Below are positions 6,003-41,379 of a stretch of DNA of 64,000 bases, one piece after another. Numbering within the stretch: position 1 is the stretch's first letter; each line of letters begins with the position of its first letter. The notes below the pieces were generated by a model. It did not search any database. It worked only from the letters and a program-made list of their open reading frames with translations, and had not been told where the DNA came from. The stretch comes from Candidatus Sulfopaludibacter sp. SbA3 (lineage in GTDB: Bacteria; Acidobacteriota; Vicinamibacteria; Vicinamibacterales; UBA2999): NCBI GenBank assembly GCA_945903265.1, contig CAMDNQ010000012.1, positions 22,181 through 86,180 of the forward strand. Direction: 5' to 3'. Both the position numbers and the translations under genes were made by a program.

Positions 6003-7003
6003 ACCTCGAGCCCGCTCCTCGGCACCGGTACCGCCTCGAGCAGCCGCGAGACGATGCTGTCGGAATTGAGATGCTCGGACTCCGCGTAGAAATTCGTGAC
6101 GATGCGGTGGCGCAGAATCGGCGCCGCCAGCGCCTGGATGTCCTTGATCGACACGTGGTGGCGGCCGTGCATCAGGGCGCGCGCCTTGCCGCCGAGAATC
6201 AGCGCCTGGGAGGCCCGGAGGCCCGCTCCCCACTTGACGTATTTGTCGATGAAGTCCGGTGTCCCTTTCTCGCCGGGCCGTGAGGCCGCCACCAGCCGCA
6301 CGGCGTACCGTGCCACCTCGTCGCTCACCACAACCTGGCGGACCACCTGCTGGAACTCGAGGATGTCGGCGCCTGCGAGCACCCGCGACACCGACCGGAG
6401 ATCCGCGCTCGTCGTCTGGGTGACCACCCGCACTTCGTCGTCTTCCGGCAGGTAGGTCATGACGACGTTGAACATGAAGCGATCGAGCTGCGCTTCTGGA
6501 AGCGGATACGTCCCTTCGAGCTCGATCGGATTCTGCGTCGCGAGAACAAAGAACGGCCGCTCCAGCGGATAGGTGCGGCCGGCGGAGGTGACGTGATACT
6601 CCTGCATCGCCTCGAGGAGCGCCGCCTGTGTCTTTGGGGGTGTCCGGTTGATCTCGTCGGCCAGGATGATCTGCGCGAAGATCGGCCCCTGGACGAAGCG
6701 CAGCGTGCGCGTGCCATTCTGCTCGTCGAGGATCTCGGTGCCGGTAATGTCGGACGGCATCAGATCGGGCGTGAACTGAATCCGCTTGAACCGCAGGTCC
6801 AGGATTTCCGCCACGGTCTTGATCAGCAGCGTCTTCGCAAGACCCGGCACGCCGGTAATGAGACAGTGCCCGCCCGTGAAAAGGGCTACGAGGACCTGAT
6901 CCACCACTTCGTCCTGCCCGACGATGACCTTGCGGAGCTCCGAGAGAATCCTCTCGCGTCCCGCCTGGACCACGGCGGCGAAATTTGGCACGGCGACAGT
7001 CAT
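5999..7003 (-). CDS. moxR: MoxR family AAA+ ATPase
   Basis: Walker A GVPGLAKT, RIQFTPDLMPSD, Walker B LADEINR, ATQNPIELEGTYPLPEAQLDRF; TGATG coupling at 7003. Confidence 0.95.
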   Translation of the reverse strand: MTVAVPNFAAVVQAGRERILSELRKVIVGQDEVVDQVLVALFTGGHCLITGVPGLAKTLLIKTVAEILDLRFKRIQFTPDLMPSDITGTEILDEQNGTRTLRFVQGPIFAQIILADEINRTPPKTQAALLEAMQEYHVTSAGRTYPLERPFFVLATQNPIELEGTYPLPEAQLDRFMFNVVMTYLPEDDEVRVVTQTTSADLRSVSRVLAGADILEFQQVVRQVVVSDEVARYAVRLVAASRPGEKGTPDFIDKYVKWGAGLRASQALILGGKARALMHGRHHVSIKDIQALAAPILRHRIVTNFYAESEHLNSDSIVSRLLEAVPVPRSGLEV

Positions 7004-33518: not shown

Positions 33519-34538
33519 TCAGGCTCGGGCGACCGCGAGCTCGACGATCTCTTCGATCAGCTGCGTGTACGTCCGCCCTGACTTGCGCGCCGCCATGGCG
33601 AGCTCCGCCTTCGATGCGAGCCAGGGATTGGGATTGACCTCGATCACGTGCACCTTGCCATCAGGCTGCAAACGCATGTCGACGCGGCCGTAGTCGCGCA
33701 GCTCGAGCGCTTGATACGCAGCCACTGCGGTCTGATGCAGGGTCTGGACGAGCTCGTCGGAAAGGTCGGTGGCGATGGCTGATTTGGTGTCGCGGTAGGC
33801 AGCCGTCCCCTTTCCCCACTTCACTTCCGCCGCCGCGATGCGCGGGGTCCCCTCGGGAAGCTTCGATAAATCAAGCTCCACGATGGGGAGCGCTTCCGGT
33901 TTTTCGTTGCCCAGGACCCCCACGTACATCTCGCGTCCCTCGATGTATTCCTCGATCAGGACCGGGGAATCGAAGTTGGCGTGGAGCCAGTCGATGCGTT
34001 CCATCAGCTCCCGGATCGAATTGACCACCGCGCTGAATTCGATGCCGATCGACCCGTCCTCGCGCGCCGGCTTGACGATGACCGGAAATTCGAGGTCGTG
34101 CGAAAAATCGAGCCGTCCCCGAAACGATTTCGCGAACGTTGGCGTGTGGATCCCATGGAACGCGAAGATTTTTTTCGCGACGGCCTTGTCCTGCGCCAGC
34201 ATCAGCCCATGGGTGCCCGAGCCGGTGTATTTCCTGCCGAGCAGCTCCAGGAATGCCGCGATCTTGTAATCGGCGGTGTCGTCCTCTGCAAAAGATTCCG
34301 AGAGGTTGAAGACCAGATCGCATTCGGCTTTCGCCAGGCCCAGCAGGCTCTTCTGCGTGCCATCCAGCTCGTACAGGATCGGCTCGTGGCCAAGCTTCGT
34401 CAGCGTCTCGGCGACCTCTTCCTCGACTTCCTTCTTATCGAGGGTACGGACGACCGGCGACTTGTCGCCCGACGCTGGTTCATCGTCGTCATCGACAAGG
34501 ACGCGGTCGTACAGAACGACGATTTTGAGCTTGCTCAT
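33519..34538 (-). CDS. D-Ala-D-Ala ligase-like ATP-grasp protein
   Basis: YTGS..LAQDK, VKPAREDGSIGI, IEEYIEGRE, YGRVDMRL, IEVNPNP; lacks the canonical Ddl GG.S.EH N-terminus. Confidence 0.85.
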   Translation of the reverse strand: MSKLKIVVLYDRVLVDDDDEPASGDKSPVVRTLDKKEVEEEVAETLTKLGHEPILYELDGTQKSLLGLAKAECDLVFNLSESFAEDDTADYKIAAFLELLGRKYTGSGTHGLMLAQDKAVAKKIFAFHGIHTPTFAKSFRGRLDFSHDLEFPVIVKPAREDGSIGIEFSAVVNSIRELMERIDWLHANFDSPVLIEEYIEGREMYVGVLGNEKPEALPIVELDLSKLPEGTPRIAAAEVKWGKGTAAYRDTKSAIATDLSDELVQTLHQTAVAAYQALELRDYGRVDMRLQPDGKVHVIEVNPNPWLASKAELAMAARKSGRTYTQLIEEIVELAVARA

Positions 34539-34575
34539 TCCCTGGTTGGTAGTCGGTGGTTGGTGGTATGGTAGT

Positions 34576-35580
34576 TTAAGTCTCAAAACGTCCGCGCGTC
34601 AGAAAATTCATCGCAAGCGTCGTGGCGAGCACGGTGACCTCGACCAGGTACCGCGCCTCTTCGCCACGCTCGCCCCACAGTTTCATGCGCTGGCACGTCC
34701 GGCAGATCGAATCGATCAGGGCGCGAACCACCGGCCGCGGGACACCGGTCCAATACGTGATTTTCTCGACGAGCTCAGGGCGATGCTTGGTAACGATATC
34801 GCCCGCCGGCACGGCTTCCTTCCGCTTGCGCGTCAGGAAGATCTGCGGGAGATGCGCGTCGAGGGCAATGTCGATGCGCGCCTGACGCTCCTCCCCCGCG
34901 GCCTCGTAGAACTGCTCGACGGTGACCTTGATGTCGTCGGGCGTGATGTCGACATCGCCGGTCTTGACGATCGGTTCGACGTCTGCGAGCGCGCGGGCGA
35001 CGCGTTCGACGTACCGCAGCTTCTGCATCGCCGGCCACCCTTTGTAGCGGCGGCGCCATGCGCTGCGAGGGGTCAGCCAGACCGCAAACGTTTCGGCAAA
35101 ATCTTCGTCGGGATGCTTCTGCGCGTACCACCCCTCGATGTGGCGCACGAAGCTGCGGCTGAACGGCACCGGCCGATAGTCGTCGCGATACGGCCTGAAG
35201 AACGGTCCAAACAGGCGGCGCCACTCCGGGGTCGTATAGAGGCGGTACGCGTAATTGAACACGTGCCCCGCCTCATGACGCATGTACATCATGACCTGGC
35301 GATCCGTCTCGAGCGTATCAGCCGCCTTCTCGATTTTTCGGAGCTTTGAATCGGCGAGATAGAACGGAATCCCGAGGACGGGTTGCTGATCCGGACAACC
35401 CCATTCGTCGGTCAGGTAGCAGACAGGACGGAAGTTCTTGAACCCGCGCCGCTCGAGCTCCTCGTAGAGCTGACGGATGTAGCCCTCGACCGGCGACCCC
35501 TCGACACGGAGGCCGAGCTCGCTGACTTTCTTCCCCAGCACGCCTCGGATCTCTGGATCGAGCGACTCGAACTTAACCAC
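34576..35580 (-). CDS. Putative zinc-binding metallopeptidase (Peptidase_Mx-like zincin)
   Basis: RHEAGH (HExxH) and YAQKHPDEDFAETFAVWL; TAAGAT 6 nt upstream of GTG. Confidence 0.85.
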   Translation of the reverse strand: MVKFESLDPEIRGVLGKKVSELGLRVEGSPVEGYIRQLYEELERRGFKNFRPVCYLTDEWGCPDQQPVLGIPFYLADSKLRKIEKAADTLETDRQVMMYMRHEAGHVFNYAYRLYTTPEWRRLFGPFFRPYRDDYRPVPFSRSFVRHIEGWYAQKHPDEDFAETFAVWLTPRSAWRRRYKGWPAMQKLRYVERVARALADVEPIVKTGDVDITPDDIKVTVEQFYEAAGEERQARIDIALDAHLPQIFLTRKRKEAVPAGDIVTKHRPELVEKITYWTGVPRPVVRALIDSICRTCQRMKLWGERGEEARYLVEVTVLATTLAMNFLTRGRFET

Positions 35581-35797: not shown

Positions 35798-35844
35798 AAC
35801 CACCAACCACCAACTACCAACTACCAACTACCAACCACAAACTA
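35798..35844. repeat. Heptamer tandem repeat AACYACC, about 6.5 units
   Basis: aaccacc aaccacc aactacc aactacc aactacc aaccaca aacta; the complementary GGTRGTT form occurs at 34543-34575, 35592-35610 and 50089-50115. Confidence 0.9.
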
Positions 35845-37668
35845 GCTGGCGCACTCCCCGTCCATCACTTCGGGCGTGAATGCCTCGGTTTCGCCAAGGT
35901 CGATGTAATCGGCCGGCGTCAACTCGTCCGGAACGACAGTCGCGAGGTCCTGCAGCACGTCGGTCGCTGCAGCCGGGCCGATCCGCCGGTAGAACGCGCC
36001 AAGCGACTCCTCAGCAACCCGCTGCTGCCGATACAGGCCAATCAGGCGATCGAGTGCGTCTGTCAGACGATTGACCGGCACCTTCGACACGACCTTGCCG
36101 AACTGGGCGCCATCGCTGTTCACGCCGCCTCCGACCAGCACGAAGTACTGCGGCACGGCACGTCCACCGACTTTGCGAACGCTCCCTTGGAAGCCGATCC
36201 CGGAGATGTGGTGCTGACCGCATCCGTTCGGGCATCCGCTGATCTTGATGTCGCCTGACGGGACGGCATCCACGAGCTCAGGATGCGCACTGAGATACTC
36301 GGTCAGGATGCGCCCGAGTCCCCGCGACTGCGTCACGGCGAGACGGCAGCTTTCCGCGCCAGGGCAGCTCGTGACATCGGCCACCGTTCCCGCATCGCCG
36401 GCACCGAGATTCGCAGCGCGGAGCCGCTCGTAGAATGCGGACACCAGCTTGACCGGCACCCACCGGAACAGAATGTTCTGGTCGATCGTCAACCTGACGG
36501 TGCCATCGCTGTAGGCTTCGGCGAGGTCGGCGATGACCTGCGCCTGGCCGGCAGTGAAATCGCCGAGCGGGAGCCGGGCCGTCACCATCACGAAGCCCGC
36601 CTGCCGCTGCTTCCGGACGTTGTGCCTCGTCCAGCGCACGTAGCCATCGGGCAGGGTCTGGAGTTGTACCGTCCCCGGCATGATCCCGGGGCCGGACACG
36701 GGGCTCACGGCCAGCGCTGCGGCCATCTGCGGCGTCAGCGGCGCCGGCTTCGGCCAGTCTGGTGCCTCTTCAACCGGCGGTGCGGACGCGGGGAACGGCA
36801 GGCGGGCGCCTCCCTCCGCGCGGAACTCCGCCAGCGCCTCCTCGAACTTGGCGCGCCACGCGTCCCAGCCGAGCGACTTCATCAGGAACTTCATCCGGTT
36901 CCGCTGCGGGTGCTTCCGGTCGCCGTTGCGGTGGAAGACTCGCAGGACCGCTTCGGCCACGTCGAGCATCTCCTCCGCCGGGAGGAACTCGTACAGCACG
37001 GGCGCGTCGATCACCATGATCGCGGTGCCGCCGCCGACGACCACCTTGAAGCCGCGCTTCCCGTCGACGATGCGCGCGTGCCAGCCGATGTCATGAATCG
37101 CCGCGACAGCGTGGTCTTCGGGGCATCCCTCGAACGCGATCTTGAACTTGCGCGGGAGCGACGCGGCGAGCGGATGCCTGAGGAAGTACCGTGTCAGCGC
37201 CTCGGCGTACGGAGTGACGTCGAAGATTTCGTTCTCGGCGACGCCCGAATACGGGCATGACGTGATGTTCCGGACCGAGTTGCCGCACGCCTCGCGCGTC
37301 GTGATGCCCGTTTCGGCCATGGCCCGCATCGCGTCCTCGGCATCACTCAGCTTGACGAAGTGGAACTGGACGTTCTGGCGCGTGGTCACGTGGCCGAATC
37401 CGCGGGAGTAGCTGGTAGCCACGCCCGCGAGCGACCGCAGCTGCGCGGATGTCAGGATGCCCTGCGGGACTTTCACCCGCAACATCTGGACGTCGTCCTG
37501 CCGCTGGCCGTAGGTCCCGCGCAGCAGGCGGAACTTCCGCCAGTCGTCGGGTGAAATCTCGCCGCGCTCGTACTTGCCGAGCACATCGACGAACTCGTCG
37601 ATGTCGTGTTCCTTGGCGAACCCCGTACGCGGACGGCCTACCGCCGTCGCCTGATCAATGACCGACAT
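35842..37668 (-). CDS. sir: Siroheme/[4Fe-4S] sulfite (or nitrite) reductase hemoprotein
   Basis: TTRQNVQFH, LPRKFKI, CPGAESC..SGCPNGCG; co-transcribed with cysG behind a Cys-rich leader, which favours sulfite reductase. Confidence 0.88.
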   Translation of the reverse strand: MSVIDQATAVGRPRTGFAKEHDIDEFVDVLGKYERGEISPDDWRKFRLLRGTYGQRQDDVQMLRVKVPQGILTSAQLRSLAGVATSYSRGFGHVTTRQNVQFHFVKLSDAEDAMRAMAETGITTREACGNSVRNITSCPYSGVAENEIFDVTPYAEALTRYFLRHPLAASLPRKFKIAFEGCPEDHAVAAIHDIGWHARIVDGKRGFKVVVGGGTAIMVIDAPVLYEFLPAEEMLDVAEAVLRVFHRNGDRKHPQRNRMKFLMKSLGWDAWRAKFEEALAEFRAEGGARLPFPASAPPVEEAPDWPKPAPLTPQMAAALAVSPVSGPGIMPGTVQLQTLPDGYVRWTRHNVRKQRQAGFVMVTARLPLGDFTAGQAQVIADLAEAYSDGTVRLTIDQNILFRWVPVKLVSAFYERLRAANLGAGDAGTVADVTSCPGAESCRLAVTQSRGLGRILTEYLSAHPELVDAVPSGDIKISGCPNGCGQHHISGIGFQGSVRKVGGRAVPQYFVLVGGGVNSDGAQFGKVVSKVPVNRLTDALDRLIGLYRQQRVAEESLGAFYRRIGPAAATDVLQDLATVVPDELTPADYIDLGETEAFTPEVMDGECAS

Positions 37669-39004
37669 GCCTCACCTCGTCTCCTGTAGCCGCAGTGCGC
37701 GCCAATCTCGCCCGAATCTTCACCACTTCTCCGATCACCAGGACGCCCGCCGCGCCAGTTGGAGGTTCAGCGGCGCCCATCTGATCGAGCCGCCCGGTCC
37801 ATACCCATTCGTCAGGCATCGACGCGCTGCAGACGATCGCCGCGGGTGTGTCCGGCCCCCAGCCGTGTCCTATCAACTGCGCCGCCAGCGACGCGCGGGC
37901 GCCAACGCCCATCAGCATCACGATCGACAGCGAGTTGGGGCGGACCGCCCCAAGACTGTGATCGACCGTCGCGTCCGTGTGGCCAGCGAGCACGAGGAAG
38001 CCGGACGCCACCCCGCGATGCGTGATGGGAATCCCCGCCATTTCCGGCGCCGCGATCGCGCTGCTGACACCCGGCACCACGTCGAACGGAATCCCCGCCA
38101 TCGCCAGCGCCAGGGCTTCTTCCCCGCCCCGGCCGAACACGAACGGGTCGCCGCCCTTCAGCCGCACGACGCGCTTGCCCTGCTTGGCAGCTCGAATCAT
38201 CAGCCGGTGGATCGTCTCCTGGGGCACGCTATCCCGCCGTGCCCGTTTGCCGACCGAGAAGCACTGGGCCTTCGTCGCGCGCCGAAGCGCATCGACATCG
38301 ACGAGGGCGTCATACAGCACCAGATCGGCCTGCTGCAGCCTTCTCACCGCCGCGACGGTCCACAGATCCGGATTCCCAGGCCCGGCCCCGACGAGAGACA
38401 CACTCCCGGGATCGGGGATCCGGGATCGGGGATCCGAAGGCCGGATCCCGGGGCCCGCATCCCGGTAAATGTTGTTGAGCGCCTCCAGCAACTGCGGCCG
38501 GCGCTGCTCCATCGGCACGCCCTGCTGCTTCCACGCGGCCCGTGCCGCGTCCGCAGTGGCGAGCCACAGCGCCAGGTCCGGCGGCAGCATTGCGTCGATG
38601 CCTTCGCGCAGCAGCCCCGCAAGCGCCGGTGCGCGGCCGTCGGTCGAAATCGCGATGGTGACGCCATCGCGGCGCACGACGCCGCCAAGATACGCCGTCG
38701 CATGCCGCGGATCGTCCACCGCGTTCACGAAAATCCGTCGCTCGTCCGCCGCCGCCCGCACCCGCTCGTTGACGTCAGGCGGCGCCGCGGCGACCACCCA
38801 CCAGGCGCCGTCGAGATCCGCCGGCTCGAATCCCCGGCGAACGATGGCCACGGACAGCTGCTCGATCTCCGGCACGACCTGAGGCGCCACGACAGTCACG
38901 TCGGCACCGGCAGCCAGCAGCGCCTCGAGTTTCGAGGCCGCCACGGGACCGCCGCCGACCACGACGGCACGACGCGACTGAAGATTCAGGAATGCTGGAA
39001 ACAT
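37655..39004 (-). CDS. cysG: Siroheme synthase (dehydrogenase/ferrochelatase + uroporphyrinogen-III methyltransferase)
   Basis: VVGGGPVAASK, VNAVDDP, LVGAGPGNPDL, RLKGGDPFVFGRGGEE. Confidence 0.94.
   Translation of the reverse strand: MFPAFLNLQSRRAVVVGGGPVAASKLEALLAAGADVTVVAPQVVPEIEQLSVAIVRRGFEPADLDGAWWVVAAAPPDVNERVRAAADERRIFVNAVDDPRHATAYLGGVVRRDGVTIAISTDGRAPALAGLLREGIDAMLPPDLALWLATADAARAAWKQQGVPMEQRRPQLLEALNNIYRDAGPGIRPSDPRSRIPDPGSVSLVGAGPGNPDLWTVAAVRRLQQADLVLYDALVDVDALRRATKAQCFSVGKRARRDSVPQETIHRLMIRAAKQGKRVVRLKGGDPFVFGRGGEEALALAMAGIPFDVVPGVSSAIAAPEMAGIPITHRGVASGFLVLAGHTDATVDHSLGAVRPNSLSIVMLMGVGARASLAAQLIGHGWGPDTPAAIVCSASMPDEWVWTGRLDQMGAAEPPTGAAGVLVIGEVVKIRARLARTAATGDEVRHVGH
38406..38465. 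repeat. Heptamer (SGGGATC-like) repeats translated in-frame in the CysG domain linker
   Basis: cgggatc ggggatc cgggatc ggggatc..; encodes GIRPSDPRSRIPDPG. Confidence 0.75.
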
Positions 39005-39010
39005 GCGTCT

Positions 39011-39045
39011 AAAAAGCAAAAAGCCCGGGTGTCTGTCCCGGGCTT
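39011..39045 (-). terminator. Attenuator terminator (3:4 helix) directly upstream of cysG
   Basis: Minus strand AAGCCCGGG-acagaca-CCCGGGCTT followed by TTTGCTTTTT. Confidence 0.9.
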
Positions 39046-39070
39046 CGATCCTGTTCGTGTTTGGGCTTTT

Positions 39071-39154
39071 CTACGAGTGACCCGCACGGACCGCAAGCGC
39101 CGGGACTTGGGTCCCCCGACAACACGCGCAGGCGCATCCGCACATCTTGAACAC
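39071..39154 (-). CDS. Cysteine-rich attenuator leader peptide (V/M)FKMCGCACACCRGTQVPALAVRAGHS
   Basis: GTG 39154 or ATG 39145 to TAG 39071; 5 Cys codons within 8 codons; lies between the promoter and the terminator. Confidence 0.85.
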   Translation of the reverse strand: MFKMCGCACACCRGTQVPALAVRAGHS

Positions 39155-39162
39155 GATGAGTG

Positions 39163-39192
39163 ATTTTACAGCGGCAAACCCCACAGGGTCAA
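39163..39192 (-). promoter_or_regulatory. Sigma70-type promoter of the cys leader
   Basis: TTGACC (39192-39187)-N18-TAAAAT (39168-39163). Confidence 0.82.
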
Positions 39193-39196
39193 ATAG

Positions 39197-40450
39197 TTAC
39201 GCCCGTGCGGCGGCGGGCTGGGAGGCCTGCGGTGCCAGCGCGCGCTCGAAGTCCGCCAGGCTGCGTCCGATTCTGGTCGGCTGGGCGACCCGCCCCATCA
39301 TGACTTCGGCGGTCTTGTAGCCATTGCCGGTGATGCAGACCACGACGGACTCATTCCGCTTGATCACGCCCTGCGCAATGAGTTTCCGCGTGACCGCCAG
39401 CGTCGTGCCGCCGGCAGGCTCGGTGAAGATGCCCTCCGTCTGCGCAAGCAGCTGAACGGCATCCAGAATCTCGGGGTCGGTCGCCGAAGCGCCGGCGCCT
39501 CCCGTCTCGTGGACCACTTTGACGACCTGGAATCCGTCGGCCGGATTGCCGATCGCCAATGACTTCGCAATCGTGGCCGGCTTGACGGGCTCAGGGAATT
39601 CCAGCCCGGCGTCCAGCGCGTTGATCACCGGCGACGAACCCGCAGGCTGGGCGGCGTGGATCTTCGGCAGCTGGCCGCTGACCAGCCCGATTTCACGCAT
39701 CTCACGGAATCCTTTGTAGATGCGCGGCAGGAGCGTTCCCCCGGCGACCGGTGACACCACATGGTCCGGGAAGCGCCAGCCAAGCTGCTCCGCGATCTCG
39801 AAGCCCATCGTCTTGGCGCCCTCGGCGTAGTACGCGCGAAGGTTGATGTTGGCGAACCCCCACCCATACCGATCGGCGATCTGCGTGCACAGACGGTTGA
39901 CGTCGTCGTAGTTCCCCTCGACCGCCACGACGTGCGGCGCGTAAATCGCGGCGCCCAGGACTTTCGCGGGCTCCAGATCGTGCGGGATGAAGACGTAGCA
40001 CGGAAGCCCGAGACGCGCGGCGTGCGCGGCGACGCTGCCGGCAAGGTTGCCGGTGGACGCGCACCCGAACACCTGGAACCCGAGTTCCACGGCGCGGGTG
40101 GCCGCAATCGACACGACGCGGTCCTTGTACGAGAACGTCGGATGGTTGACTGAGTCGTCTTTGAGATACAGCTCGTCGACGCCGAGCTCACGCGCCAGAC
40201 GGGTCGCCCGCACGAGCGGCGTGAAGCCGGAGTTGAAACCGGTACGCGGCTCCTCGACCGGCAGCAGTTCGAGATAGCGCCAGAGCGACCGCGGACGCGA
40301 TTCAATCACGCTCCGGGTCATGACTTTCTTGACCGCGGCGTAGTCGTACGAGACTTCAAGTGGGCCAAGGCAGTCAGCGCAGACCCACAGCGCTTCTGCC
40401 GGATACGTCGCGCCACACAGGTGGCAGGTCAGGCCCGCGACGAATTTCAT
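39197..40450 (-). CDS. thrC: Threonine synthase
   Basis: PTFSYKDR (PLP Lys), ASTGN, EGAKT, ITGNGYK; in an operon with thrB and hom. Confidence 0.92.
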   Translation of the reverse strand: MKFVAGLTCHLCGATYPAEALWVCADCLGPLEVSYDYAAVKKVMTRSVIESRPRSLWRYLELLPVEEPRTGFNSGFTPLVRATRLARELGVDELYLKDDSVNHPTFSYKDRVVSIAATRAVELGFQVFGCASTGNLAGSVAAHAARLGLPCYVFIPHDLEPAKVLGAAIYAPHVVAVEGNYDDVNRLCTQIADRYGWGFANINLRAYYAEGAKTMGFEIAEQLGWRFPDHVVSPVAGGTLLPRIYKGFREMREIGLVSGQLPKIHAAQPAGSSPVINALDAGLEFPEPVKPATIAKSLAIGNPADGFQVVKVVHETGGAGASATDPEILDAVQLLAQTEGIFTEPAGGTTLAVTRKLIAQGVIKRNESVVVCITGNGYKTAEVMMGRVAQPTRIGRSLADFERALAPQASQPAAARA

Positions 40451-41379
40451 ACCGTTCTCCCCTGGGCCGAGGCCACCGCCTCGCGTGTCGCCTCCGATGA
40501 CTGGTGGACGCCGAGCGTGCGGACCGTCACCGGGCAGTTGGCACGCTCGTAGATGGATTGCAGCAGCCGCTCGAGGCGATCGAAATCGCGCCGCGCGAGC
40601 ACCGCGACCGACGGACCGGCTCCCGACAGGAACGAGCCCAGAATCTCCGGATCGTCGAGCGCCAGCACGGTGTCGAGCTGCGGAATCAACGCGGTCCGCG
40701 CTGGCTGATGCAGCCGATCGCGCACCGCTTCACGCAGACGGCCGTAATCGCCTTCCTGCAGCGCGTGCACGAGTCCGAGGACGCGCTGCAGATTGAACAC
40801 AGCATCTTTCCGCGGAACCGAATCCGCCAGCGCGGCTCTGGCTTTGGACGTCGACAGGCCCACCGACGGCGTCGCCACGATCAGCCGCAGTTCCTCGGGC
40901 CACTGCCACCGCAGCGCGATCGGCTCCTCGCCCTCACGCTCGATCACGGACGTGAGTCCGCCGTGCAGTGCCGCCGCCGCATTGTCGGCATGTCCCTCGA
41001 GCGACGTGGCGACGGCCAGCAGCACGCCGTCCGGCAGCGGTTGGGTCACGCGCTCGAACATGCGGACGCCCGCCACCGTCGCGGCAGCGCTGCTGCCCAG
41101 GCCGGCGGCCATCGGAATGTCACTTTCAGCTTCGACAAACACCGACGGCGTCTTGAGACCGGTCCATCGGGCCATCGCTTCGAAGGCGCGTTCGACAGAA
41201 TTTCGCCCGCGGACGGCCGGCGTGCTCTTGACAACAGACAGCGTCGTCCCGCCGTCGTCCCGGACATCGACAACCCGGAGGCGCAGGTACAACTGCACGG
41301 CCACGCCGAGCGTATCGAAGCCGCCCCCGAGGTTCGCCACGGAGGCCGGCACGGTCACCAAAGTGCTGTTAAGTGACAC
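40447..41379 (-). CDS. thrB: Homoserine kinase
   Basis: VPASVANLGGGFDTLG, PMAAGLGSSAA, EGHADN, SGAGPS. Confidence 0.94.
   Translation of the reverse strand: MSLNSTLVTVPASVANLGGGFDTLGVAVQLYLRLRVVDVRDDGGTTLSVVKSTPAVRGRNSVERAFEAMARWTGLKTPSVFVEAESDIPMAAGLGSSAAATVAGVRMFERVTQPLPDGVLLAVATSLEGHADNAAAALHGGLTSVIEREGEEPIALRWQWPEELRLIVATPSVGLSTSKARAALADSVPRKDAVFNLQRVLGLVHALQEGDYGRLREAVRDRLHQPARTALIPQLDTVLALDDPEILGSFLSGAGPSVAVLARRDFDRLERLLQSIYERANCPVTVRTLGVHQSSEATREAVASAQGRTV

Follow-up and report, generated by a model that had tools for sequence, protein, structure and literature searches.

In a 64,000-nucleotide stretch of the genome of Candidatus Sulfopaludibacter sp. SbA3 (the window, to which all positions below refer unless another locus is named), the siroheme synthase gene cysG lies on the minus strand directly behind a hairpin and T-tract that have the form of an intrinsic transcription terminator. 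The locus raises the question of how, and in response to what, RNA polymerase gets past this terminator into cysG and the sulfite reductase gene (sir) that follows. The hairpin belongs to a leader that also carries a short open reading frame (sORF) rich in cysteine codons and a segment able to pair with the 5' arm of the terminator. Such a leader had been proposed in a sequence-only reading of the window; its coordinates all proved correct, and the elements are present in order on the minus strand. The leader combines the features by which attenuators are recognized in silico, namely an ORF with Cys codons, a terminator, an antiterminator that excludes the terminator, and downstream genes of the cysteine pathway. 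From the sequence and from folding models, we consider it highly probable that the element senses charged tRNA-Cys as a ribosome-mediated transcription attenuator.

A Cys-codon reading frame and two exclusive structures

The sORF consists of 27 codons (VFKMCGCACACCRGTQVPALAVRAGHS; 39071..39154, minus strand), from GTG at 39154 to TAG at 39073-39071. Its regulatory codon run, TGC GGA TGC GCC TGC GCG TGT TGT (39119..39142, minus strand), has five Cys in eight codons, as had been claimed. Two starts had been proposed for it, the GTG and an internal ATG at 39145, and the GTG is the conserved one: it was kept in 11/11 close relatives that include it, and the internal ATG reads CTG in locus L001. 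Upstream lies a sigma-70-like promoter (39163..39192, minus strand; TTGACC at 39192-39187, an 18-nt spacer and TAAAAT at 39168-39163) with 10 of 12 matches to the consensus. This promoter, also part of the earlier proposal, was the only promoter-like site in the 2.5 kb from 38000 to 40500, where shuffled sequences gave an expectation of 0.2.

The GTG sits 8 nt after the -10 box, and no Shine-Dalgarno (SD) sequence was found before it. Of 74 distinct leaders, 34 had a recognizable strict promoter; its -10 box ended 7–10 nt from the start codon in 29 of them. From this spacing and the lack of an SD sequence, we infer that no more than 3 nt, if any, precede the sORF in the RNA; the window sORF is thus probably leaderless, or nearly so.

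Cys-rich frames of this kind are rare: only 42 stop-to-stop frames with at least five Cys in eight codons were found when the whole 3.52-Mb genome was translated in six frames. For comparison we collected 80 loci encoding relatives of the CysG protein, mostly on contigs labelled Vicinamibacterales or Acidobacteriota, 77 of which had enough upstream sequence. Within 256 nt upstream of cysG, 28 of these 77 loci carried an sORF with at least four Cys in eight codons, usually ending about 70 nt before cysG. These scans of the genome and of the cysG upstream regions were made without the covariance model R1, which was built from 12 close leaders (alignment A1) with the terminator-state structure, and they constitute the independent evidence for the Cys sORFs. 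In the larger set of aligned leaders, 50/50 contained an sORF with 2–7 Cys in eight codons (at least four in 37, three in 12 and two in one), a result that is partly circular because R1 itself includes the Cys codons.

The reading frame appears to be under selection. Inside the sORF, 4/4 gap positions in alignment A1 were 3 nt long, whereas 8/9 gaps after the stop codon were 1–2 nt, and the stop codons shared one column in 12/12 rows. These frame-preserving indels and aligned stops point to selection on a reading frame and support its translation. The Cys residues in this 12-leader alignment were preserved through TGC/TGT exchanges. Across the leaders the Cys run begins around codons 4–10, and the peptide outside it differs completely between subfamilies; a tail, GT.VPALSVR.G, is conserved in the 12 closest relatives. 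The third positions of codons 18–24 were nearly invariant, which, since these codons overlap the antiterminator strand described below, argues for a constraint at the RNA level.

Downstream of the Cys run, the RNA can fold in two ways. Segment 1 starts 3 nt past the last Cys codon, where a ribosome stalled at that codon would cover it, and can form the 1:2 hairpin (39102..39115, minus strand; GGGAC 39115-39111, loop CCAA, GTCCC 39106-39102). Segment 2 (39089..39106, minus strand; GTCCCGG-c-GCTT-g-CGGTC, with GTCCCGGCGCTT at 39106-39095) is the 5' strand of the antiterminator, and segment 3 (39035..39051, minus strand; GGATCG AAGC CCGGGAC) is its 3' strand, which overlaps the terminator 5' arm (AAGCCCGGGAC at 39045-39035). 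In the antiterminator, 39106-39089 pairs with 39050-39035 (GATCG-AAGC-CCGGGAC) and encloses an inner helix, B (39056..39088, minus strand; CGTG.GGGT 39088-39080 with GCCC...CACG 39066-39056), which holds the sORF stop codon in its loop and is compatible with both states. The 7+4 bp antiterminator described in the sequence-only reading is present but is longer than stated, with additional pairing of CGGTC 39093-39089 with GATCG 39050-39046. The competing structure is the intrinsic terminator (39011..39046, minus strand), with a stem at 39046-39020 (GAAGCCCGGG, loop ACAGACA, CCCGGGCTTT) followed by the T-tract TTGCTTTTT to 39011. The stem has 10 pairs, one more than the nine originally counted, of which seven are G-C, with a 7-nt loop, and it formed in the minimum-energy fold. 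As had been noted, 6 nt (AGACGC) separate the end of the T-tract from the cysG ATG at 39004.

A terminator, consisting of a G+C-rich stem of 10–16 pairs and a T-tract, could be defined in 49/50 leaders; L057, in which it could not, was left out of the energy, swap and masking tests, giving n = 49. A strict hairpin-plus-T-tract finder gave a match in 24/77 cysG upstream regions. Pairing of the post-Cys region with the terminator 5' arm was more stable than in 200 dinucleotide shuffles (p ≤ 0.05) in 35 of the 49 leaders, with a mean z of -2.68. In the window, the duplex energy was -25.2 kcal/mol versus a shuffle mean of -15.2 (z -3.78), and 0/200 shuffles were as good. The duplex usually began 14–18 nt after the last Cys codon, just beyond the footprint of a stalled ribosome. 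When post-Cys regions were swapped between leaders, foreign regions bound a given terminator arm equally well or better in 26% of cases (null 50%), and the two strands co-varied across subfamilies, GTCCCGG with CCGGGAC and GGCTCCCCTGGGC with GCCCGGGGGGC. The duplex-shuffle and swap tests do not depend on structure-fitted alignments.

Covariation was scored for both states on alignments (A2 and A3) that were each fitted to the structure they were scored on. In the terminator-state model (50 sequences), 92.5% of cells were paired and 19/24 pairs had changed on both sides; 0/500 shuffles scored as high, and slid partners were 36–56% paired. The 1:2 hairpin (helix 1) was paired in 87.1% of cells, with 5/5 pairs changed on both sides, and the terminator (helix 4) in 96.7%, with 6/11. 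A second model, R2, was built with the antiterminator structure and aligned 43 leaders. It gave 91.3% of cells paired, with 19/22 pairs changed on both sides (0/500 shuffles as high; slid partners 32–45%), and its helices 1–3 were 87.7–98.4% paired. Helix B, common to the two models, was 84.8–95.3% paired, with 8/8 pairs changed on both sides. The two mutually exclusive structures are supported about equally well. The comparison of related cysG upstream regions that had been suggested as a check of the element accordingly showed both conserved Cys codons, in the 28 loci found by scanning, and covarying helices.

The leader family and the genes it precedes

The cysG gene (37655..39004, minus strand; ATG at 39004) encodes a siroheme synthase of 449 aa with the Pfam domains TP_methylase (6.6e-45), NAD_binding_7 (1.8e-26) and Sirohm_synth_M (1.2e-5). 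It is overlapped at its end by 14 nt by sir (35842..37668, minus strand), which encodes a sulfite (or nitrite) reductase hemoprotein of 608 aa with the domains NIR_SIR (2.5e-53) and NIR_SIR_ferr (7.4e-43). In many relatives (L092, L097, L099, L100, L104, L107, L114, L016, L058, L060 and L075), the siroheme synthase is split into a 184–232 aa NAD_binding_7/Sirohm_synth_M protein and a separate methylase of ~260 aa, compared to the single 449-aa fusion in the window.

The element is real but not unique to this locus: it is one of three copies in the genome and is widespread in the order Vicinamibacterales. The three leaders lie before cysG-sir, cysD-cysN-cysH and a YeiH-type gene. The two extra copies came from a Cys-run scan of ORF-free space, which is unfit for counting, since its mask (no ORF of at least 100 aa in any frame) hid the window leader under a spurious plus-strand ORF. 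A search of the genome with R1 returned the same three leaders, with E values of 3.9e-34, 3.3e-11 and 4.7e-7; the next match, at E 0.037, was a bare terminator. The leader on contig 18 (L082) has the sORF VFTGLMCACCCCCPETSRGLGARRLAA and its own terminator, and is followed by genes for a 316-aa PAPS_reduct protein (cysD-like), a GTP_EFTU protein (cysN-like) and a 214-aa PAPS_reduct protein (cysH-like). The leader on contig 19 (L083) has the sORF VSAVVTCACCCRGAQVSMGRAVSAPASF and precedes the gene for a membrane protein of family PF03601 (Cons_hypoth698, YeiH-type; L083 4489-5823). The presence of a Cys leader before this gene ties an uncharacterized transporter family to sulfur uptake or export by shared regulation.

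Among the 80 related cysG loci, 47 had a full-length, gene-strand match to R1 at E ≤ 5e-4. Leaders that did not adjoin cysG preceded genes ahead of it in the same direction, encoding TauE, DUF2061, a cysH-like PAPS_reduct protein or ATP-sulfurylase/APS-kinase (sat-cysC). In 151 genomes sampled from the order, 57 had a match at E ≤ 1e-3, representing 40/80 genera and 13/19 families, a lower bound given the stricter filters of that search. The first downstream gene at 29 further loci of the order encoded PAPS_reduct in nine cases, siroheme synthase domains in eight, TauE in four, and DUF2061 and PALP (cysteine-synthase-like) in one each, so that sulfur-assimilation or cysteine genes followed the leader in 23/29. 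The remaining genes encoded Porin_O_P (one), thioredoxin-like proteins (two), AA_kinase (one) and proteins of no family (two). The Porin_O_P anion porin and the two thioredoxin/redoxin-like proteins (L098 1721-2965, L109 228-1454 and L110 1659-2618) may also belong to the regulon.

R1 derives from a single subfamily, and divergent leaders would escape it. A further subfamily, represented by L026 2697-2855 (MSSQPCTCCPCCCRQF...) and L043 2830-2985 (MMSVEARACRCCCCQK...), also has a terminator upstream of cysG. It was found by the Cys scan and missed by R1 at E ≤ 1, showing that the family is broader than the model. In a 151-genome sample of the phylum, 12 genomes outside the order gave R1 matches at E ≤ 1e-3; the six loci examined (L121 and L123–L127) were terminator-like hairpins without a Cys-rich sORF and were rejected. 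The family claim is confined to the order Vicinamibacterales. Rfam (release 15) gave no relevant match in window 37000-41000 at E up to 10, and at gathering score no family matched the element at eight leader loci. A SAM riboswitch (RF00162, 53.5 bits) was present at L061 6293-6429, about 2 kb downstream of the cys operon.

The leaders favor TGT as the Cys codon. TGT made up 152 of 247 Cys codons (62%) in the 50 leaders, a figure that may be inflated by R1 selection, and 9/15 in the genome's own three leaders (window 39119-39142; L082 1192-1358; L083 5838-5986), compared to 20% in 1118 long ORFs with high third-position G+C (GC3) of this 66% G+C genome. Among the 48 tRNAs in the assembly there is a single tRNA-Cys, with anticodon GCA, and TGT is thus a wobble-read codon. 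The preference may serve to tune stalling or to prevent structure in the Cys run.

Proposed mechanism and competing explanations

In the proposed mechanism, transcription would begin no more than about 3 nt from the GTG at 39154, and the 27-codon sORF would be translated by a ribosome following closely behind RNA polymerase. With cysteine plentiful, the ribosome would pass segment 2, reach the TAG at 39071 and sit between segments 2 and 3; the terminator would then form, and transcription would end 6 nt before cysG. With Cys-tRNA in short supply, the ribosome would stall in the Cys run (39142-39119), covering segment 1 and freeing segment 2 (39106-39089) to pair with segment 3 (39051-39035) and so take the terminator 5' arm before the 3' arm has been made. 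With this arm occupied, polymerase would read into cysG-sir. The position of the ribosome would thus decide the outcome: past segment 2, it would keep segments 2 and 3 apart; stalled, it would leave segment 2 free. The two sister leaders would act likewise on cysD-cysN-cysH and the YeiH-type gene, making up a three-operon cysteine regulon sensed by the ribosome.

Folding of the window leader was consistent with this scheme. The free RNA folded with the terminator. When the first 47 nt were masked, corresponding to a ribosome with the last Cys codon in the A site plus 14 nt, the antiterminator was the minimum-energy fold and 0/10 terminator pairs remained; with a longer mask, representing a ribosome at the stop codon, the terminator formed again. 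The sequence-only reading had suggested such folding with and without masking as a check, and the minimum-energy fold flipped from terminator to antiterminator as it had anticipated. Of the 49 leaders, 43 had an intact terminator when folded free and 48 when masked to the stop. The trp/his-type logic put forward for the element is supported by the in-frame Cys sORF, the covariation of both states, the duplex test and the masked fold of the window.

Several observations weigh against this interpretation. Under the stalled-ribosome mask, the terminator was kept in 38/49 leaders (equilibrium folds of full-length RNA), so that a switch would in most cases have to be kinetic. When nascent RNA was folded without the 3' arm, upstream pairing took up half or more of the 5' arm in 46/49 leaders, whether masked or not. 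Since the antiterminator forms in nascent RNA without a ribosome, a "protector" role for the 1:2 pairing lacks thermodynamic support. The protector hairpin GGGAC-CCAA-GTCCC of the earlier proposal is present and covaries, but it failed to out-compete the 2:3 pairing in ribosome-free nascent folds, and the energies of 1:2 hairpins beat shuffles (p ≤ 0.05) in only 6/49 leaders, with a mean z of -0.56. The antiterminator complementarity was not significant in 14/49 leaders, and the strict promoter was seen in only 34 of the 74. The partial circularity of the Cys counts from R1 and the fitting of A2 and A3 to their own structures count in the same direction. Finally, in five of the 29 further loci the gene behind the leader has at best a loose connection with sulfur, and the leader before the AA_kinase gene (L116) is short and probably a false match.

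The persistence of the hairpin in 38/49 equilibrium folds despite the stalled-ribosome mask would also suit a mainly translational control, in which the hairpin at 39046-39020, 15 nt before the cysG ATG, hinders ribosome loading until stalling opens it; a mixed mechanism is possible. Sequestration of the downstream ribosome-binding site is the mechanism shown for Mycobacterium smegmatis in the sections of Canestrari et al. that deal with it (bioRxiv 10.1101/834739). At the window locus, the terminator 3' arm and T-tract end 6 nt before the ATG, and a hairpin refolded on read-through RNA could overlap the initiation region. However, a translational sequestrator needs no T-tract, whereas the hairpin is a textbook intrinsic terminator, with a T-tract directly after the stem in 49/50 leaders. 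Furthermore, there is no Shine-Dalgarno sequence inside the hairpin, and in L023, L039, L073 and L080 the leader lies 60–140 nt from the next start codon, too far for occlusion. We consider mainly translational control unlikely. We think it very improbable that the sORF instead encodes a functional Cys-rich micropeptide, metal-binding or redox-active, next to an ordinary terminator and an unrelated structure. The tail GT.VPALSVR.G is indeed conserved among the 12 closest relatives, and the discussion of conserved residues by Canestrari et al. (10.1101/834739) leaves room for an independent role of some that are not Cys. However, this tail shows no variation in its third codon positions and falls on the antiterminator strand, and the peptide outside the Cys run is fully different between subfamilies. 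The number of Cys varies from 2 to 7, and the element lies immediately ahead of sulfur-assimilation genes, on their strand.

A pair of conserved alternative structures is equally a hallmark of riboswitches, and the leader might be a riboswitch that binds a metabolite or an antiterminator that depends on a protein, the Cys codons being incidental. But no Rfam family matched, no conserved multi-helix junction or pocket was apparent, and among the single-stranded features only the in-frame Cys run is strictly conserved, in a reading frame under selection as judged from its frame-preserving indels and aligned stop codons; we hold out little prospect for such a reading. We give almost no credence to the idea that the element is no more than a terminator for the hom-thrB-thrC operon upstream, with a chance Cys-rich frame beside it. 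There is no other terminator between the thrC stop codon at 39197 and the leader, and the hairpin probably also ends thr-operon transcripts. However, the same leader recurs where the genes upstream are unrelated ones (a divergent gene in L082, a TonB_C gene in L083, and various others in relatives), and the six-frame genome has only 42 frames with at least five Cys in eight codons. The R1 matches in the genome and its relatives, and the Cys sORFs of the aligned leaders, in effect refute a role as thr terminator only. Attenuation by a ribosome that senses charged tRNA-Cys is the reading compared below with known systems.

Related systems and the surrounding locus

The classical leader-peptide transcription attenuators are those of the E. 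coli trp, his, thr, leu and pheA type. Attenuators of this kind are outlined in PMC4007540. The present leader resembles them in having a leader ORF with codons for the end product, alternative 1:2, 2:3 and 3:4 pairings, and a terminator just before the first structural gene. It has several regulatory codons, as in the his leader, which would give a graded response. It differs in that cysteine would be the amino acid sensed and that genes for sulfate assimilation and siroheme are controlled, and in that the sORF seemingly lies at the RNA 5' end without a Shine-Dalgarno sequence. The antiterminator is also long-range, with about 16 pairs that enclose an inner hairpin with the stop codon. No sequence relationship to the classical leader families was found (no Rfam leader match).

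Cysteine-codon leaders have been described in other bacteria. The polycysteine, leaderless sORFs of mycobacteria (the "Cys ribulon") respond to cysteine and sequester a downstream ribosome-binding site, a mechanism that the authors, in the part of the preprint concerned with it, contrast with terminator-based attenuation (Canestrari et al. 2020, bioRxiv 10.1101/834739). Like these, the present sORFs are unannotated, apparently leaderless and Cys-rich, and occur in several independent copies before cysteine and sulfur genes. The mycobacterial precedent invoked in the sequence-only reading is thus real as regards poly-Cys leaders; the attenuation there is, by the same account, translational (SD-sequestering) and does not act by termination. 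Unlike the M. smegmatis system as it is presented there, the present leaders have a canonical terminator with a T-tract and a covarying antiterminator, and they belong to another phylum; no homology is expected. For actinobacterial Cys leaders, the relevant part of Seliverstov et al. (2005, PMC1262725) reports that no terminators were found.

The uORFC-8-2 motif, a predicted ribosome-mediated attenuator upstream of cysS in Rhodobacterales, has conserved Cys codons in an upstream ORF (uORF), followed by a terminator stem and U run, as here (entry for the motif in Brewer et al. 2021, PMC8632094). As portrayed in that entry, it differs in having only two tandem Cys codons (near positions 14-15), a cysS target, an alpha-proteobacterial host and another, two-stem architecture; its uORF starts with AUG and is not described there as leaderless. 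Among the downstream genes examined here (cysG, cysD, cysH, TauE and the like), cysS was not identified. In Deinococcus deserti, a leaderless 10-aa peptide with two Cys is encoded upstream of cysS (de Groot et al. 2014, PMC4007540). According to the lines of that paper devoted to it, this peptide lies at the mRNA 5' end, where it was mapped (the position is inferred in our case), and was likewise proposed to serve transcription attenuation; it differs in its single target gene, cysS, its two Cys codons and its phylum.

To our knowledge, almost nothing is known of gene regulation in Acidobacteriota, which are abundant in soil and water. Almost no predicted attenuators in Acidobacteria had an assigned function in the corresponding part of the survey by Naville and Gautheret (2010, PMC2965389). 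The earlier statement that this arrangement lacks a description in Acidobacteriota held up: we found no Cys-codon attenuator from the phylum, nor one with an intrinsic terminator on sulfate-assimilation operons, in the literature searched, most subscription journals and supplements lying outside it. The leaders apparently form an undescribed family in Vicinamibacterales, with a mechanism of an already known kind. The family provides a concrete regulatory RNA for the path from sulfate to sulfide to cysteine, with a covariance model, defined operons and mutational predictions. It would extend cysteine sensing by ribosome stalling from Actinobacteria, where it is translational, to a termination-based form in another phylum, and it is a likely added case of leaderless leader peptides. 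It also flags unannotated sORFs missed by gene callers, and through shared regulation links YeiH/PF03601 and TauE transporters, DUF2061, an anion porin and thioredoxin-like proteins to sulfur metabolism.

A broader picture, which we put forward tentatively and regard as doubtful, is that Vicinamibacterales run their whole sulfate-assimilation regulon through leaderless Cys sORFs and terminators, independently of the mycobacterial ribulon, with the leader also serving as an insulator and TGT tuning its sensitivity. The regulon would then span transport, activation, reduction and siroheme synthesis, with termination in place of translational occlusion. If the sORF were translatable only at the 5' end, read-in from the thr operon would fold into the 1:2 and 3:4 hairpins and terminate, and a response to cysteine would be confined to transcripts from the leader's own promoter. 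The frequent TGT codons, read by wobble, would set the sensitivity.

Upstream, the -35 box of the leader starts 4 nt past the stop codon of the thrC-like gene (39199-39197, minus strand), with no terminator in between, and at the contig 19 leader the -35 box shares sequence with the stop codon of the TonB_C gene before it (L083 about 6020-6030). With no terminator between them and the upstream genes, the leader terminators probably also end the transcripts of the upstream operons. Read-in transcripts would have the sORF in an internal position, without an SD sequence. Freshwater metatranscriptome contigs (four runs, one study) matched window 38000-40200 with 0 differences: one covers 38994-39152, one of 605 nt joins thrC, leader and cysG, and two have an end at 39161 and 39166, near the predicted transcript start. 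These contigs indicate the presence of the sequence only, since RNA ends, strand and level are not readable from them and the libraries may contain DNA. On the 3' side of the sulfite reductase gene, window 33519-35580 encodes, on the same strand, a Peptidase_Mx-like protein (334 aa) and an ATP-grasp protein of the D-Ala-D-Ala-ligase type (355 aa), whose genes overlap each other by 11 nt.

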